In this document: positions 36,551 through 43,998 of the stretch, piece by piece
Layout of the letters: the number at the start of each line of letters is the position of its first letter
How positions within the stretch are numbered: position 1 is the stretch's first letter
From: Escherichia coli
Lineage (GTDB): Bacteria; Pseudomonadota; Gammaproteobacteria; Enterobacterales; Enterobacteriaceae
Reading direction: 5' to 3' (one strand)
Length of the DNA: 64,000 bases
NCBI RefSeq assembly: GCF_036507355.1
Contig: NZ_AP027877.1
Position numbers and translations under genes: made by a program
Notes under the pieces: generated by a model
Told to the model about the DNA's origin: nothing
The model's database searches: none
What the model saw: only the letters and a program-made list of their open reading frames with translations

Positions 36551-37054
36551 TTATTGATAGTGTTTTATGTTCAGATAATGCCCGATGACTTTGTCATGCA
36601 GCTCCACCGATTTTGAGAACGACAGCGACTTCCGTCCCAGCCGTGCCAGGTGCTGCCTCAGATTCAGGTTATGCCGCTCAATTCGCTGCGTATATCGCTT
36701 GCTGATTACGTGCAGCTTTCCCTTCAGGCGGGATTCATACAGCGGCCAGCCATCCGTCATCCATATCACCACGTCAAAGGGTGACAGCAGGCTCATAAGA
36801 CGCCCCAGCGTCGCCATCGTGCGTTCACCGAATACGTGCGCAACAACCGTCTTCCGGAGCCTGTCATACGCGTAAAACAGCCAGCGCTGGCGCGATTTAG
36901 CCCCGACATAGCCCCACTGTTCGTCCATTTCCGCGCAGACGATGACGTCACTGCCCGGCTGTATGCGCGAGGTTACCGACTGCGGCCTGAGTTTTTTAAG
37001 TGACGTAAAATCGTGTTGAGGCCAACGCCCATAATGCGGGCTGTTGCCCGGCAT
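36551..37054 (-). CDS. insB: IS1 InsB transposase segment
   Basis: 167-aa [40 protein letters not shown]. Confidence 0.9.
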
Positions 37055-37248
37055 CCAACGCCATTCATGGCCATATCAATGATTTTCTGGTGCGTACCGG
37101 GTTGAGAAGCGGTGTAAGTGAACTGCAGTTGCCATGTTTTACGGCAGTGAGAGCAGAGATAGCGCTGATGTCCGGCGGTGCTTTTGCCGTTACGCACCAC
37201 CCCGTCAGTAGCTGAACAGGAGGGACAGCTGATAGAAACAGAAGCCAC
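36973..37248 (-). CDS. insA: IS1 InsA
   Basis: 91-aa [43 protein letters not shown]. Confidence 0.9.
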
Positions 37249-38338: not shown

Positions 38339-38412
38339 GCGGGCGTAGTTCAATGGTAGAACGAGAGCTTCCCAAGCTCTATACGAGGGTTCGATTCCCT
38401 TCGCCCGCTCCA
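38339..38412 (+). tRNA. glyU: tRNA-Gly (anticodon CCC)
   Basis: GCGGGCGTAGTTCAATGGTAGAACGAGAGCTTCCCAAGCTCTATACGAGGGTTCGATTCCCTTCGCCCGCTCCA, 74 nt with encoded CCA. Confidence 0.95.
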
Positions 38413-38546
38413 TGACCTTTCTTAAAGTACTCCAACCTACTGAATCCTAAGGGATACGGCTTTAAGCCTTCCGCTAGTTTTACTCACTGTAACCAACACT
38501 GTAACTAAATTTGTTGAAATAGTGAGCAGACTTAAGATCTCAGTAC

Positions 38547-40178
38547 ATGCTCAACTCAAAAACCTATCTTTATCAGCGCAATGGCGTCTTTTATATCCGC
38601 CTCAGGATGAAGTCCACAGATCGCCTGACCGTTTCACATCCTTCCCATAGCCGTTATAAAATAGCGTCAGTATCACTACGGACTAAGGATAGACGTACAG
38701 CTATGGCTTACTCACGGCAAATCAAGGCAGCACTTAGGGCAATCCATGCAGACAGACCCAACGCCTCCTATGAGGAAATGAGGGAACACCTGAGGGACAT
38801 CGCAGAGTGGGAGTTGTCTACAGGTCGTTCAGACCTCTTCGAGCCAGATATGAGAGATCTATACCGTGACCAGTATGGGGAAGTGGGAGAGAATCTTGTC
38901 CATGCTCTGGCAAGCGAGCCACTGACTATTGACCAGCATCGCTATATTAATGAGGCTCTTAATGTACTCAAGGCCTGCATGAAGCGCATTGAAGCGGGAG
39001 ATAGCCAGCCACTTATAGATTATATAGATGGATTTGATGCTGCTGCTGGGGCTAATGGCCAAGCCTCTGCAACTCTATCTGTTAGTGCTCCCCAAAAAAC
39101 AAGCATTACTGAAGGCAAACACTGCGTAACCGTTGCTTCTCTCTTTGAGCAGTACGAGCAGGAAAACGCCCAGAACTGGAAGCCAGCAACATTACGAGAA
39201 AACAAAGCTTCTCATGCTGCGTTAATCGAAGTTTTTGATTATCTGGGCCTCAATGCTGACGCCAATGTGTTAGCTCGTGCGGATATGCTTAGGGTTCGGG
39301 ATATCCTCCAGCAATTGCCGAAGAATCGTAAGCAGCGTTTCAAAGATGTTCCGTTGGTTGACCTGCTAGGTCGTGAGGATAAAACCGATTGTCTGGATAT
39401 TGTTACCATCAATAATAAATATCTCATTAAGATGGCGGCTGTTTTCAAGTGGGCCGTGCGTAATGACCTGATTAAAAAGAATATGACAGAAGGGCTAGAG
39501 CTTAAGGTTCCCCAGCGTAAAGCCTCTGAGGCGCGTAATGCTTTCTCTACGGAGCAGGTAGGACAACTACTGGCTGCCGCCCAAGTTTACTCACAGAGAC
39601 CTTCTGGTAAGCCGTATCATTATTATGTTACCGCCTTGGCTGCTATCACTGGGGCGAGACTCAATGAAATAGCCCAACTACAGGTCAAAGACGTCAGGAC
39701 CACTGAGGCGGGAACCGTTTATATTCATATCAATGAAGACGATAGTAGTCTACCCGGTAAGAGCATCAAGAACGCTCATAGTGACCGCTGTGTGCCTCTG
39801 GTCGATGGGGCCTATGGTTTTATATTGGCTGACTTTATGAGGTTGGTTGAGACCCGTAGAGGCGCTGATGGTGATGACGCTATGGTGTTCGATGGTCTTC
39901 GCCTCATGAAGAACGGTTACGGTGAGCAGGTGAGTAAATGGTTTAATCGGACGTTGTTGCCTAAAGTCCTCGCAGACCGTAGCGGCTTAGCGTTTCACTC
40001 GTTTAGACATACAGTTGCGACCCAGTTAAAACAACATGGGGTCGAGTTGGCGTATGCACAGGCGATCATGGGGCATAGTTCAGGGTCTATTACTTACGAC
40101 CGTTATGCTAAAGAGGTTGAGGTTGATAGACTGGTCAATGTGATGGCTGATGTTTATAAGGAGGTTGTGGCCCCTTAA
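38547..40178 (+). CDS. Tyrosine recombinase/integrase, unusually large (island 1)
   Basis: 543-aa ORF starting 135 bp after glyU; C-terminal HSFRHTVATQLKQ...AQAIMGHSSGSITYDRYAKE resembles catalytic R..H-x-x-R/Y box. Confidence 0.75.
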   Translation: MLNSKTYLYQRNGVFYIRLRMKSTDRLTVSHPSHSRYKIASVSLRTKDRRTAMAYSRQIKAALRAIHADRPNASYEEMREHLRDIAEWELSTGRSDLFEPDMRDLYRDQYGEVGENLVHALASEPLTIDQHRYINEALNVLKACMKRIEAGDSQPLIDYIDGFDAAAGANGQASATLSVSAPQKTSITEGKHCVTVASLFEQYEQENAQNWKPATLRENKASHAALIEVFDYLGLNADANVLARADMLRVRDILQQLPKNRKQRFKDVPLVDLLGREDKTDCLDIVTINNKYLIKMAAVFKWAVRNDLIKKNMTEGLELKVPQRKASEARNAFSTEQVGQLLAAAQVYSQRPSGKPYHYYVTALAAITGARLNEIAQLQVKDVRTTEAGTVYIHINEDDSSLPGKSIKNAHSDRCVPLVDGAYGFILADFMRLVETRRGADGDDAMVFDGLRLMKNGYGEQVSKWFNRTLLPKVLADRSGLAFHSFRHTVATQLKQHGVELAYAQAIMGHSSGSITYDRYAKEVEVDRLVNVMADVYKEVVAP

Positions 40179-40179
40179 G

Positions 40180-40225
40180 GATGACCATAGGCGATGACCA
40201 TAGGCGATGACCATAGGCGATGACA
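40180..40225 (+). repeat. 3.5 tandem copies of 13-bp unit GATGACCATAGGC
   Basis: Exact tandem copies at 40180, 40193, 40206 plus partial; start 1 bp after integrase stop. Confidence 0.9.
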
Positions 40226-40330
40226 CTTGCTACTATTCCTATGGTCCCCTTTGTGGTCCTATGTGGTCCTGTGTGACCCTTTGTGTGGTCATGTTTTGAC
40301 TCATAGTTTTCACTACTTGTCAAGCATATT

Positions 40331-40353
40331 TAATACGACTCACTATAGGGAGA
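40331..40353 (+). promoter_or_regulatory. Phage T7 RNA polymerase promoter, exact consensus
   Basis: TAATACGACTCACTATAGGGAGA = 23/23 match to T7 -17..+6 consensus; predicted +1 G at 40348; faces the KilA-N gene. Confidence 0.8.
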
Positions 40354-40585
40354 AGGGACACAAAAAGTTTTCTCTCTCTGTCTCTCTCTATGATGACACT
40401 TGCTACTACTTCAGGTAGCTTTAACTCTAACCGTAACTTATCGCATCCTTTCAGGGGCGGGATGACCAATTACAGACACCAAGCGTTCTACTTAAAATGA
40501 ATGCTTCCTGTGTGCTCTGGGTCAGTCGATAAGTGAATAGCCTTAGACATCATATTAATTATGGTCTCTAACCCCTACAGGGGCT

Positions 40586-40729
40586 TAACTTTAAGTATTA
40601 ACTTATAGTCTACTTAAAGACACAATTAAAGATTAACTTAAAGTATTAAATTATAGATTAATTAAAGACCAATTAAAGAGTAACTTTAAGTATTAACTTA
40701 TAGTCTACTTAAAGACACAATTAAAGATT
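40586..40729 (+). repeat. AT-rich iteron-like array: two identical 49-bp direct repeats with a degenerate copy between
   Basis: TAACTTTAAGTATTAACTTATAGTCTACTTAAAGACACAATTAAAGATT at 40586-40634 and 40681-40729. Confidence 0.9.
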
Positions 40730-40922
40730 GACTCTAAGGGAATACCTTAAGAGGTGATGATATTCATAATAATCAATCACCAAACCTATAGGTCTCCTCA
40801 AGGCATTACCCAGAAGCTAACTGTATGGCCCTGTATGGTCCTGTACGCCATTCTTTAGGATGCCATGTAGTTTCGTATGGCCTGATGCCTAGCGTGGCTC
40901 AGAGACCCTCCCAGTAGTAAAT

Positions 40923-40945
40923 CAATACGACTTACTAATAGGAGA
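40923..40945 (+). promoter_or_regulatory. Degenerate T7-like promoter (5 mismatches)
   Basis: CAATACGACTTACTAATAGGAGA retains the AATACGACT core; function uncertain. Confidence 0.3.
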
Positions 40946-41157
40946 CACACTCCGAACCACTCACCACGTGTCTCTCAAAGTTCCACCTCTCGCGCTTCAC
41001 CATACAGTAGCTCCGCACAGCTACGACACAATCATTCATTCAATCTCAAAGTCATTCTGTTTGCATCCTGTTGTCCTGCTGGTCTCCCTTCGCTTGGGGA
41101 CTTTGAGTGGGCCAGTAGGGGGCGGTTTAGTGTGCATATTTAAAAGGTAACCAAGCA

Positions 41158-41721
41158 ATGAACAATAAACATAAACATGCAGGTCATATTATCACTATTG
41201 AAGGCCACAGCTTTAAGTCTAATGAGTCTGGCATGTGGAATCTTACAGAAATATGGAAAATCCTCGGATTACCTAACAATAAGCTACCCTCTCAGTGGCG
41301 CGGCAAGGTAACAAAGAGGCTCACCGACATGCAAAAAATGCACGTCGAGAAGATTGGTATTGAAAGCATAACCTACGCAGACAAACAGGCTACCCTCAAG
41401 TATGCAGGATGGGTCTCTGAAGATTTCGAGGACATGGTCTATGCAGCCTTTGAGGCTATCCTTGAGATGCCTGAAGTTGCCACGGTCGTTGCTAATAAGA
41501 TGGTCGAACTTGGCTATCACGCTGAAGCTGAGCTATTGGAACGTCATAAGGACGACTATAGAGAAGCTATGCAGACCCTTAAAAAGATTGGTAAACGTGT
41601 TGACGGCAGGAAGCCTGAGCGCATCTACAAGGCCGTACTTAACGGTAATCTGACGAAATTTCAAGGGTTATCCATGATTTCTCGCAGCAGTGTCTGGTAC
41701 GCCCGAACAGTGAATCTATGA
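41158..41721 (+). CDS. KilA-N-like DNA-binding domain protein (island 1)
   Basis: 187-aa ORF; N-terminal IITIEGHSFKSNESGMWNLTEIWKILG ... ATLKYAGWVSEDFEDMV resembles KilA-N/anti-repressor N-domain by eye. Confidence 0.5.
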   Translation: MNNKHKHAGHIITIEGHSFKSNESGMWNLTEIWKILGLPNNKLPSQWRGKVTKRLTDMQKMHVEKIGIESITYADKQATLKYAGWVSEDFEDMVYAAFEAILEMPEVATVVANKMVELGYHAEAELLERHKDDYREAMQTLKKIGKRVDGRKPERIYKAVLNGNLTKFQGLSMISRSSVWYARTVNL

Positions 41722-41844
41722 TGGCTATCGATCACGATAGATGCCAGCGATCAATTTCAGGTTACCGATCGAAACAAACGATCAGCACGATGGTTGCAAT
41801 CGGATATCATATTGACACTTGTCTGACATCCTGAAGGTATCAAT

Positions 41845-42318
41845 ATGTTTGGGCTTTTTAAGAAAAAGGCAAAAGCGGAAAGGTGTTATGATGTAACACG
41901 CATTCAATACGAGCTGGTTGTAATGTCATCTAAGCTGATAAAAAAACAGACCGATATGTTCAAAGTAATAAAAGGGGAGCGAGAGGAGGCTTTAGGAGAC
42001 CCTTTATTATCAGCAGGGTATATAACGCCATGGGTCATTGGATATTGCACTGGTCTCCTGGATGCAGTGACTCAGACGGAGGCTAACAGGATGGCATTTA
42101 CATCAGAAATGCTTGGGCTTCTTTTTGCTGCAGTTTTCGGTGATGATAAGTCTCTTGAGGCCATGGGAACTTATATAGCCTGTAACGAAGCCTCCTCACC
42201 AGACCATGGATTTCATGTTACGTATGAGCTTTATATGTCTGGTCTAGCGAAAGCGTTTAATGAGGTATGTGAGGATAAACCTGCGATAGGACTTCTGAAC
42301 TATTTAATGCAGGATTGA
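41845..42318 (+). CDS. Hypothetical protein (island 1)
   Basis: 157-aa ORF downstream of KilA-N gene; no family recognised. Confidence 0.45.
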   Translation: MFGLFKKKAKAERCYDVTRIQYELVVMSSKLIKKQTDMFKVIKGEREEALGDPLLSAGYITPWVIGYCTGLLDAVTQTEANRMAFTSEMLGLLFAAVFGDDKSLEAMGTYIACNEASSPDHGFHVTYELYMSGLAKAFNEVCEDKPAIGLLNYLMQD

Positions 42319-42584
42319 AAATTTCCCACAAAAATCTCAGTGCCTATCTAACAGTAATAACCCTGCAACATTCCCCCGTATACCTCCAGAAGTTATCCAG
42401 AAGCCGAAGTAGGTATCCTGTCATGTATTTGAATCATCAAAGTTGTTCGTTCTATTCCTCTTTAGGGAATATTACAGCCCTACAGCCTTGACCAGAGATC
42501 ACTTGATGTGTAACCATAACTGTAACCAAAAGGATTCATCATCCTTTAAGAAACAATTGGTTAGTGAGTGATTGTCTTCGATAC

Positions 42585-42607
42585 TTCGATTCCCTTCGCC
42601 CGCTCCA
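42585..42607 (+). repeat. Direct repeat of glyU 3' end (att site duplication between island 1 and island 2)
   Basis: TTCGATTCCCTTCGCCCGCTCCA identical to 38390-38412. Confidence 0.9.
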
Positions 42608-42771
42608 AACTCAAGTCTCCTGAAGTCTACCAAACTCAATTTTTCCTTGATAAATCAGCAGTTATAGCTTTCTATTAGTCTATTGAACTCAATTGTACTC
42701 CCCCAGGGTCAAGCTCAATGTGGGGGTATGGATGGGGGTATAATTGTACCCCCTGCTGAGAGGTACCCCCA

Positions 42772-43998
42772 ATGAAGCTGACTGCTCGTCAGGTTGAAAC
42801 TGCGAAACCCAAAGAGAAGCCCTACAAACTGGCCGATGGTGGTGGGCTTTACCTGCTGGTTAATCCCAACGGTAAAAGATACTGGCGTCTCAAATACCGT
42901 TCGTTAGGTAAAGAGAAGCTGCTCGCTATTGGCGTTTATCCCGATGTTTCTTTAGCTGAGGCCCGAAGTAAGCGTGAGGATGCTAAAAGAACATTAGCGG
43001 CTGGCAACGATCCCTCTCTTGAACGAAAAATTGAGAAACTTAGTCGTCAACAAGACGCTGAAAACTCGTTTGAGGCTATCACACGGGAGTGGTATCAGCG
43101 TCGCTATGACCGCTGGTCTGTCTCCTACCGCGAAGAAATGCTGAGAACCTTTGAGAAAGATGTATTTCCTTATATCGGTCACAGGCCAATCAAAGATATC
43201 AAGCCGATGGAGTTGCTTGCAGTTCTTTCAAAGATAGAAGCACGAGGGGCAACAGAGAAAGTCCGCAAGGTTCGTCAGCGTTGTGGAGAGGTCTGGAAGT
43301 ATGCCGTTGTGACTGGGAGGGCCGAGTACAATCCAGCACCTGATCTAGCCAGCGCCGTGAGTCCTCATGAGAAAGAGCACTATGCTTTTTTAACCCAGGA
43401 TGAATTGCCTGAGTTTCTTCGGACTCTGAACGCCTATGCCGGTAGTGTGCTTGTTAAGATTGCGATGCAATTGCTCATTTTAACAGGAGTAAGGCCAGGG
43501 GAGTTGAGGCAAGCGGAGTGGCAGGAGTTTGATTTTGAGAAAAAGGTTTGGAATGTACCAGCGGAACGTATGAAAATGCGCCGCCCTCATCTTGTTCCAT
43601 TATCAAGCCAGGCAATTGACCTGCTTAATCAACTTAAACCCATAACGGGAGCAGGAGCGTTATTATTCCCAGGACGTAATAATCCTAAGAAACCGATGAG
43701 CGATATGGCATTGACTGTGTTGGTCAGGCGTATCGGCTATGCCGGGCGCGTTACAGGGCATGGATTCCGCCACACGATGAGTACCATTTTGCATGAGCAG
43801 GGATTCAACTCGGCCTGGATTGAGTTACAGCTGGCTCACGTCGATAAGAACTCAATTCGTGGGACGTATAACCATGCTCAATATTTGGAAGGTCGGCGGG
43901 AGATGATGCAGTGGTATGGAGATTTCATCGGTCAAGCAGGCAAATCCGGATCATCGCTAGCTTATGCAGCTATTAGCTTGACTGCTGAATTAGAGTGA
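42772..43998 (+). CDS. P4-type tyrosine integrase (island 2)
   Basis: 408 aa; N-terminal arm-binding MKLTARQVETAKPKEKPYKLADGGGLYLLVNPNGKRYWRLKYR; C-terminal GHGFRHTMSTIL...LAHVD...YNHAQY. Confidence 0.9.
   Translation: MKLTARQVETAKPKEKPYKLADGGGLYLLVNPNGKRYWRLKYRSLGKEKLLAIGVYPDVSLAEARSKREDAKRTLAAGNDPSLERKIEKLSRQQDAENSFEAITREWYQRRYDRWSVSYREEMLRTFEKDVFPYIGHRPIKDIKPMELLAVLSKIEARGATEKVRKVRQRCGEVWKYAVVTGRAEYNPAPDLASAVSPHEKEHYAFLTQDELPEFLRTLNAYAGSVLVKIAMQLLILTGVRPGELRQAEWQEFDFEKKVWNVPAERMKMRRPHLVPLSSQAIDLLNQLKPITGAGALLFPGRNNPKKPMSDMALTVLVRRIGYAGRVTGHGFRHTMSTILHEQGFNSAWIELQLAHVDKNSIRGTYNHAQYLEGRREMMQWYGDFIGQAGKSGSSLAYAAISLTAELE

Follow-up and report, generated by a model that had tools for sequence, protein, structure and literature searches.

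A 4.2-kb tRNA-Gly island of Escherichia coli with a T7 promoter belongs to a family of integrative islands that may be satellites of T7-like phages

Why should a perfect promoter for the RNA polymerase of phage T7 stand beside a tRNA gene in the chromosome of Escherichia coli? In a 64,000-nt stretch of contig NZ_AP027877.1, hereafter the window, such a promoter lies within a 4.2-kb interval that starts at the tRNA-Gly gene glyU and holds three open reading frames (ORFs), all of them intact. On balance, we read this interval as an intact, reduced member of a family of 4-6.5 kb integrative islands whose cargo is wired to the RNA polymerase of T7-like (Studiervirinae) phages and which probably live as satellites. 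The more modest claim of a wiring to a T7-like-phage polymerase is very likely to be right; for the satellite reading taken by itself we would put the chance close to even and possibly below. The main result is the family context of the island, which goes beyond what a single window can offer.

The integration target is glyU, a tRNA-Gly(CCC) gene on the plus strand (38339..38412) and the only tRNA that ARAGORN reports in the window. Its 3′ end (TTCGATTCCCTTCGCCCGCTCCA, 38390-38412) forms the core of the left attachment site, attL, and an exact second copy on the same strand at 42585..42607 forms that of attR, with a spacing of 4,195 bp. A preliminary description of the locus had already noted that the last 23 nt of the tRNA recur at this point. 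The repeat is exact, the pair are the sole matches in the 64 kb even when 3 mismatches are allowed, and 100 shuffles returned none, the number expected by chance thus being 0. Inside attL is the gene of a 543-aa tyrosine recombinase with a long N-terminal region (38547..40178, plus strand). Classification with hidden Markov models, a check proposed in the same description, identified a Phage_integrase domain (Pfam PF00589, E=4.8e-18) and membership of phrog_1 (E=2.6e-42), and motifs fitting the catalytic residues are present (GAR 369, HSFRH 484, GH 509, ITYDRY 515). The possibility that the region is conserved core DNA, also raised there, was checked against 5,426 complete E. coli genomes: the region is accessory, at least 80% of its length being present in ~35 of them, adjacent to tRNA-Gly every time. 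These carriers come from natural sources (water, pigs, birds and humans), and some of the copies are interrupted by insertion sequence (IS) elements. Strain 23S01245-7 has a glyU without the small island. With a recombinase gene by the tRNA, a duplicated tRNA 3′ end and presence/absence polymorphism, the region is a tRNA-targeting integrative island.

Putative arm-type sites for the integrase lie close to both ends. Two 12-bp copies stand in tandem on the plus strand at 38485..38508 (CACTGTAACCAA and CACTGTAACTAA; repeat family D5), 74 and 86 nt inside attL, and a third is found at 42518-42529, 64 nt from attR. In five relatives that were checked, the shared CTGTAAC occurs near attL at the identical 74/86-nt offsets in 3 and at 72 nt in 1, and near attR at a distance of 58-81 nt in 3. 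From these conserved offsets we infer that the 12-mers are integrase arm sites. Homologues of the integrase are spread across the Enterobacterales at 64-92% identity, and in 11 of 16 genome loci a tRNA-Gly(CCC) gene is kept just upstream. Among Escherichia, Klebsiella, Yersinia, Serratia and Plesiomonas the enzyme is 81-92% identical, and therefore recent transfer of the island between genera is likely.

Between the integrase and the first cargo gene, gene B, lies a non-coding core of 979-980 bp, and it is here that the link to T7-like phages is found. Promoter P1 (40331..40353, plus strand, directed toward the cargo genes) is an exact copy of the 23-nt T7 class III consensus (TAATACGACTCACTATAGGGAGA). 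With one flanking base it equals T7 phiOR at 24 of 24 nt, and it holds the sole CACTATAGG core of the window. Promoter P2 (CAATACGACTTACTAATAGGAGA; 40923..40945, plus strand), 234 nt upstream of gene B, is a degenerate T7-type promoter that agrees at 18 of 19 nt with the unusual upstream part of the T7 origin promoter phi1.1A. It is kept in other E. coli copies, and in relatives consensus promoters occupy the same position. The P1 unit (~120 bp) varies from 1 to 3 copies among E. coli islands, with 2 tandem units in locus L031 (3440-3600) and 3 in L023 (626-890). In the window, the unit is contained within an exact 17-bp direct repeat on the plus strand (GATGACACTTGCTACTA, repeat family D7; span 40219..40408, copies at 40219-40235 and 40392-40408), which brackets one promoter unit.

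Phage-type promoters recur throughout the family. Fifteen loci had enough sequence downstream of the integrase to be assessed, and 32 CACTATAGG cores were found in 13 of them, from at least 12 genera, all on the cargo strand and no more than 1.6 kb from the integrase. Elsewhere in those loci there were 0 on either strand in ~300 kb of strand sequence. Metagenome contigs bearing the conserved leader motif of the family (described below) repeat the pattern in 18 cases out of 22, the remaining four being mostly cut near the leader. Moreover, the types of promoter match different phages in different hosts. The E. coli island carries the type of phage T7 itself. In Klebsiella pneumoniae ATCC 13883 one island promoter is AATTAGGGCACACTATAGGGAGA, a sequence shared with 161 Klebsiella phages including KP32 (~10 copies per phage genome), and a second type, AATTAGGTAGCACTATAGGGAGA, is shared with 248 Klebsiella przondoviruses (11-12 copies). 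The islands of Proteus and Kluyvera have AATTAACCCACACTATAGGGAGA, which is found at 14-16 copies in the T7-like vibriophages ICP3 and N4, and those of Citrobacter, Buttiauxella and Enterobacter have CTTAACTATCACTATAGGGAGA, present at 6 copies per genome in Dev2, SFPH2, EP1 and KM02. The Klebsiella island promoters are of KP32/K11 type and the Citrobacter promoters of Kayfunavirus type. Family-wide, promoter specificity co-varies with the T7-like phages of the host. Individual islands can hold 2-3 specificities; in the K. pneumoniae ATCC 13883 locus (L004, 7030-7620) three are stacked within 600 bp, namely two Klebsiella przondovirus types and the T7 type, and L042, L043, L047 and L057 are further cases.

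Could the promoter instead be a laboratory artefact, an engineered T7 cassette, or the interval the remnant of an integrating T7-like prophage? The consensus T7 promoter is present in 201 of the 5,426 E. coli genomes, at 1-2 per genome. The sites examined lie at glyU and most other coordinates are consistent with glyU; beyond the known carriers two sites were examined, one at glyU and one in an engineered strain. This exception, E. coli HBUT-L (L036), has its T7 promoter inside a disrupted frdA and is apparently an engineered production strain, making it a useful negative control. For the most part, naturally occurring T7 promoters of E. coli chromosomes are restricted to the glyU locus. Expression vectors do carry the exact class III promoter, as the frdA insertion illustrates, and integrase-bearing T7-like phages exist. 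However, the carriers of the island are natural isolates, the family extends over at least 12 genera that each have their own promoter types, and one island can hold promoters for several polymerases. In addition, no gene or DNA match was obtained by blastn or tblastn in 50,697 phage records, and the cargo is without PHROG matches, apart from the weak match of gene B to phrog_129. We consider an artefact or a T7-like prophage remnant scarcely credible. The preliminary description had preferred a satellite or mobilisable island to a prophage, and this preference gains from the absence of phage homology and structural genes, from the virulent-phage promoter, and from the promoters and capsid-fold gene of the relatives, the lifestyle being deduced from sequence.

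What, then, would the phage promoters do? Directly in front of the cargo genes there is no sigma-70-like site, the one weak match (9/12) lying ~660 nt upstream; since no host-type promoter is evident before it, the cargo is probably silent in an uninfected cell. When a T7-type phage infects, its polymerase would start at P1 and possibly at P2. The resulting transcripts are predicted to cover a conserved block X, the AT-rich repeats, a hairpin leader, and then the genes for a KilA-N-type protein and a 157-aa protein; no intrinsic terminator stands out downstream of the promoters. According to the annotation of the T7 record, gp0.7 and gp2 shut off host transcription, and consequently late in infection only genes behind phage promoters would be well expressed.

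The promoters may also serve replication. The origins of T7 are phage promoters followed by AT-rich DNA. Downstream of P1, three ~48-bp direct repeats (40586..40738; repeat family D1) reach 79% A+T, contain many TTAAAG/CTTTAA motifs, and have the 9-11-mers TTAACTTTAAG, ACTTTAAGTAT and AATTAAAGA in common with the AT tract of the T7 primary origin. The AT-richest 100 nt lie downstream of the first promoter in all 13 of the 13 cores with a promoter match, and the order of promoter, AT-rich tract, promoter, hairpin leader and genes is kept across the family. We therefore regard P1 and the AT-rich repeats as a candidate T7-type origin region, from whose resemblance to T7 origins it would follow that the phage replisome likely amplifies the element. 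Moreover, the pentamers GGGTC, TGGTC and GTGTC, which we take to be T7 primase recognition sites, number 24 in the 979-nt core against 4.0 +/- 2.0 in shuffles (z = 10), with z > 3 in 8 of 10 family cores. However, the actual motif reads more like (A)GACCA, which might just as well be a repeat bound by a protein.

The remaining elements of the core are as follows. Upstream of P1, a repeat array at 40180..40290 consists of 3.5 copies of GATGACCATAGGC followed by ~five units that contain TGGTC or GGTCC (repeat families D3 and D2). Block X (40421..40540, plus strand; …CCGTAACTTATCGCATCCTTTCAGGGGCGGGATGACCA.TACAGACACC…) is a non-coding sequence that alignments show to be conserved across genera and that falls within the predicted P1 transcript. 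Block X was tried as a structured RNA and rejected, with 7 weak pairs and a weakly supported small hairpin. By contrast, block Y (41059..41139, plus strand), directly upstream of the gene B ribosome-binding site, is a conserved leader hairpin for which RNAalifold gives 26 pairs, 10 of them with compensatory changes. Across 11 sequences of different genera, the 15 pairs of its inner helix (41075-41119) form at 97-99%, and 4 of them are compensatory. In the window sequence taken singly the stability of block Y does not exceed that of shuffles (z = -0.14), its support being the covariation. Just 5′ of block Y is an unpaired motif, AAGTCATTCTGT (41044-41058), which is near-invariant in all relatives and surpasses the hairpin in conservation. 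It resembles, without equalling, ATCTGTT, the T7 pause signal. A search of the non-coding core against Rfam gave no match.

We next turn to the cargo. Full-size relatives have the order int, [A], promoters, block X, AT-rich tract, promoter(s), hairpin leader, B, C, D, E. The interval contents listed in the preliminary description (a recombinase, a T7-promoter/repeat region and two genes) are correct, the KilA-N label being dependent on weak matches. Gene B (41158..41721, plus strand), the first gene behind the promoters, encodes a 187-aa KilA-N-type putative DNA-binding protein, with weak matches to Pfam KilA-N (PF04383; i-E 0.0027, score 17.9) and phrog_129 (E=7.8e-10); RefSeq calls a homologue 'KilA-N domain-containing protein'. 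Homologues stand at the equivalent position in L006, L012, L016 and L029, and three alternative types occupy the B position in the family: KilA-N-like and Ant-like proteins, both of them DNA-binding-like, and a 161-aa type without a match. The second cargo gene (41845..42318, plus strand) encodes a 157-aa protein in the place of the C-D-E (capsid) module of relatives. It has no Pfam, PHROG, NCBIfam or PADLOC match; its structural model is all-helical (predicted TM-score, pTM, 0.66) and returned no fold match and no solved relative. We tried it as a version of protein D and the comparison showed no relation. Its family comprises 25 clusters, with named members in E. coli, Pectobacterium, Yersinia and Morganella, and the homologues share 52-99% identity with many invariant columns.

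The full-size relatives encode further proteins. Protein C has ~60 aa. Protein D matches a solved, uncharacterised entry of the PDB, 5EUR (E=6e-33), and its C-terminal half has weak coiled-coil-like matches; it is a putative scaffold. In L006 (4289-4780) and L035 (7413-7823), protein D carries the RefSeq name 'DUF6971 family protein' and is encoded directly upstream of the capsid-fold gene. Protein E (326-402 aa) is without sequence matches in PHROGs, Pfam and the PDB, and a search of 1.8 billion representative proteins yielded only 71 relatives. Its model (pTM 0.63) reaches a Foldseek probability of 1.00 to HK97-fold capsid and encapsulin shells, and capsid and encapsulin proteins, those of T7-like phages included, dominate its top 50 in the PDB and BFVD. 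On the strength of this modelling the HK97-fold assignment is firm; the finer relationships are not, because TM-scores are low (0.3-0.4). Other cargoes were seen in single loci. In Citrobacter braakii (L013) there is a 399-aa minus-strand ORF and a 195-aa ORF with a serine-recombinase-like N-terminus, in Edaphovirga (L017) two small adjacent ORFs of 85 and 116 aa, and in Yersinia (L029) MqsR/MqsA and ars genes follow the island.

Since the window copy is without A, C, D and E, one may ask whether it is a decaying remnant of a larger capsid-encoding element, inert except for its integrase. The degeneracy of P2 and the IS interruptions in several E. coli copies would fit such decay. However, none of the three ORFs is disrupted, the two att cores agree exactly, and P1 keeps a perfect consensus within a unit that is present in 1-3 copies. 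Moreover, the short module of a 187-aa and a 157/158-aa protein recurs in E. coli variants and in Yersinia, and therefore the short form is an alternative module and not a random deletion; the identity and invariant columns of the 157-aa homologues point the same way. We find decay to be very improbable.

Gene A brings in the main rival. In relatives it is a full-length match to PADLOC PD-T7-4 (E=1e-102), now renamed RAZR, a zinc-finger/HEPN RNase that triggers abortive infection once it has assembled on the portal rings of T7 or T3, which activate it (PMC13017515). The gene is carried by L003, L004, L006, L007, L009-L011, L015, L017, L019, L020, L029, L033 and L035, and it overlaps the integrase gene by 8 nt in L019 and L020; the original screen had recorded no more than that the system 'often overlaps an integrase gene' (Vassallo et al. 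2022, PMC9519451). In E. coli variants RAZR occupies the position of the repeat array, and in the window PADLOC finds no such DUF4145/zinc-finger HEPN gene by the integrase. On this rival reading the island senses phages for defence and is no satellite: its phage promoters would serve only as an infection sensor, from which the polymerase transcribes anti-phage effectors that abort or cripple infection (the KilA-N-type and 157-aa proteins here, C-D-E together with constitutive RAZR in relatives), and the element would spread by means unrelated to phages. Most relatives carry RAZR/PD-T7-4, for which the same two sources report proven abortive infection against T7 and T3 (PMC13017515, PMC9519451). 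Gene B also has a weak match to the PADLOC component PD-T4-2_B (E=1.3e-4), stacked promoter specificities fit a broad sensor, and the integrase-adjacent position is variable, with RAZR in some copies and repeats in others. The failure of the packaging searches given below is a further point in its favour. On the other side, a capsid-fold protein with a coiled-coil-like protein upstream is hard to see as a toxin, the conserved promoter and AT-rich layout and the motif enrichment look like replication signals, and the near identity of integrases from different genera demands an efficient route of transfer. Defence and satellite are, moreover, compatible readings and not exclusive, because satellites commonly interfere with their helpers. 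Taken as a full explanation, we think defence unlikely, albeit not negligibly so.

The satellite reading, in turn, holds that the island is a phage-inducible hitch-hiker of virulent T7-like phages, which would be excised on infection, packaged and transferred, the window copy using capsids made by the helper or by a relative. Several results weigh against it. The predicted attP junction (…TCTTCGATAC + TTCGATTCCCTTCGCCCGCTCCA + TGACC…) is absent from JGI metagenome contigs and from IMG/VR, data that rarely capture excised or packaged forms. Metagenome contigs of island size (4.2 kb) were considered as circles and rejected, as they begin in the tRNA and their ends do not overlap; terminal overlap is also absent from 22 further metagenome contigs, and the ten among them whose att flanks were read are integrated copies. 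Matches to the leader motif in IMG/VR were likewise considered as particles, but their names suggest prophage calls from isolate genomes, and therefore they are not evidence of particles. Neither the island nor its family's capsid gene matched any of the 50,697 phage records. Among the gene products, nothing was recognised as a replication initiator, primase, terminase subunit or excisionase. T7 concatemer-junction or terminal-repeat mimicry was tried as a packaging signal and rejected: the promoter-masked core shares 107 10-mers with T7 against 71 +/- 12 in shuffles, and the shared 10-mers are not clustered at the T7 ends. No ATCTGTT pause site follows the promoters, the motif being present only inside the integrase gene. 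As similarity to T7 outside the promoters is weak and unclustered at the ends, a packaging signal was not identified. Furthermore, P2 has no cognate phage promoter in the phage collection and is off-consensus at positions that we take to be important for T7 RNA polymerase. The window copy has no capsid gene of its own. T7 quickly degrades host DNA, which leaves little time for excision, and an abortive-infection RNase triggered by the helper portal is awkward in a satellite that needs helper virions.

In its fullest form, the satellite reading would make this the first recognised satellite family of strictly virulent T7-like phages. Helper promoters would act as the switch and as a borrowed origin, and stacked specificities would exploit several helpers. 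Full-size members would build or modify capsids with the HK97-fold protein and carry the portal-sensing RAZR, and the window copy would be a minimal form without a capsid, one of the smallest satellites to integrate autonomously. We offer this complete scenario tentatively and would not wager on it at even odds.

T7-like phages are textbook examples of a strictly lytic lifestyle and workhorses of phage therapy, notably against Klebsiella, and a satellite would mean a new kind of helper. If the islands are induced by phage polymerase, the order of integrase, phage promoters and hairpin leader would be a signature for their detection, and the phages that trigger a given island could be predicted from its promoter type. 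The family supplies a natural genomic setting for RAZR/PD-T7-4, reveals an unannotated capsid-fold protein family and gives genomic context to PDB 5EUR. Because wild E. coli carriers have a perfect chromosomal T7 promoter, T7-polymerase expression systems would drive island genes in them. Carriers are available in public collections, namely NCTC10973 (window type) and K. pneumoniae ATCC 13883 (full-size type).

The island does not stand alone at glyU. As reported in the preliminary description, a P4-type integrase gene starts 165 bp past the second att copy (42772..43998, plus strand, 408 aa; phrog_1 E=5e-77; NCBIfam PRK09692 E=1.6e-91, which is below the cut-off of that model). It lies outside the element and opens a second island that runs from 42772 to ~54585 with a phrog_17908 protein, a DUF2326 protein, an ABC-three component system and an arsRDABC operon; the DUF2326 protein and the 'ABC-three component system' are a candidate defence system. 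The view that two elements sit in series at one site also stands, because each is found at glyU without the other: strain SBF22 has the small island by itself between glyU and yqeG, and 23S01245-7 has, next to glyU, the P4-type-integrase island by itself, with 99.9% identity over 12 kb. Since integration restores the tRNA at attL, the small island probably arrived second. In the window, the right end of the second island is not marked by a third att copy. Its integrase lies on the same strand as the T7 promoters, whose transcripts would run into it. After attR of the small island, a common left end of the P4-type island (aa[ct]tcaagtctcctgaagtctacc) is seen in the window (42608-42640) and in L004, L044 and L058; E. 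coli and Klebsiella share it, and the tandem pairing thus recurs across hosts. In L057 (~300-365) the left att core is preceded by non-tRNA sequence, and this island probably follows another element as the second member of a tandem array. An IS1 copy (InsA-/InsB-like ORFs, minus strand) lies at 36551-37248, upstream of actS and near the glyU hotspot.

Lastly, we compared the island with known systems. In the full-text literature searched, the coverage of which is incomplete, neither islands with T7 promoters nor satellites of T7-like phages were described, and the family is apparently new to the literature. P4 with its helper P2 is alike in being an integrative element with a tyrosine integrase whose late promoters (Psid and PLL, through P2 Ogr) answer to the helper's machinery. 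P4 has 11.6 kb, a primase/helicase, Sid and Psu (capsid size and decoration), delta, epsilon and cos sites; its helper is temperate and its late promoters use host RNA polymerase with an activator. The promoters of the island suit instead the phage-encoded polymerase of virulent phages, and a P4-like satellite was rejected as none of these P4 features was detected, PHROG, NCBIfam and Pfam matching the integrase and the KilA-N-type protein only.

Phage-inducible chromosomal minimalist islands (PICMIs) encode Fis, AlpA and primase-type genes, none of which was detected in the island. PICMIs are very small (no more than 12 genes), use virulent helper phages and have no reported capsid remodelling (meeting report, PMC9966839). 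The likeness is in minimal size and, for the island putatively, in mobilisation by virulent phages; PICMIs differ in that they were described in Vibrio and that helper-polymerase promoters are not reported for them. The capsid-forming phage-inducible chromosomal islands (cf-PICIs), at ~10-15 kb, have a complete head module (portal, protease, connectors, small terminase) and borrow only tails. Like them, the full-size relatives have a capsid-type protein of HK97 fold of their own, preceded by a possible scaffold; unlike them, the 6-kb relatives have one capsid-fold gene and the window copy has none. A PICI or cf-PICI was rejected for the island at 4.2 kb and three ORFs, in which an AlpA-type regulator and primase/replication and packaging/head genes were not detected.

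The T7 origins phi1.1A/1.1B, phiOL and phiOR resemble the core in having a T7 promoter and then an AT-rich tract, and P2 resembles phi1.1A, although in the island the AT tract starts ~230 nt after P1 and not immediately. Plasmids with a T7 origin were reportedly amplified by T7 and packaged as concatemers (Chung & Hinkle, 1990); the island differs in having neither a concatemer-junction-like sequence nor a downstream ATCTGTT. A further likeness is to the RAZR/PD-T7-4 locus. In the passages searched, the RAZR papers treat it as a single-gene system and leave satellites, mobile elements and natural phage promoters unmentioned (PMC13017515, PMC9519451). The window copy differs from that locus in having the repeat array in the RAZR position; the integrase beside RAZR is of this island's integrase family, and the island type is otherwise the same.

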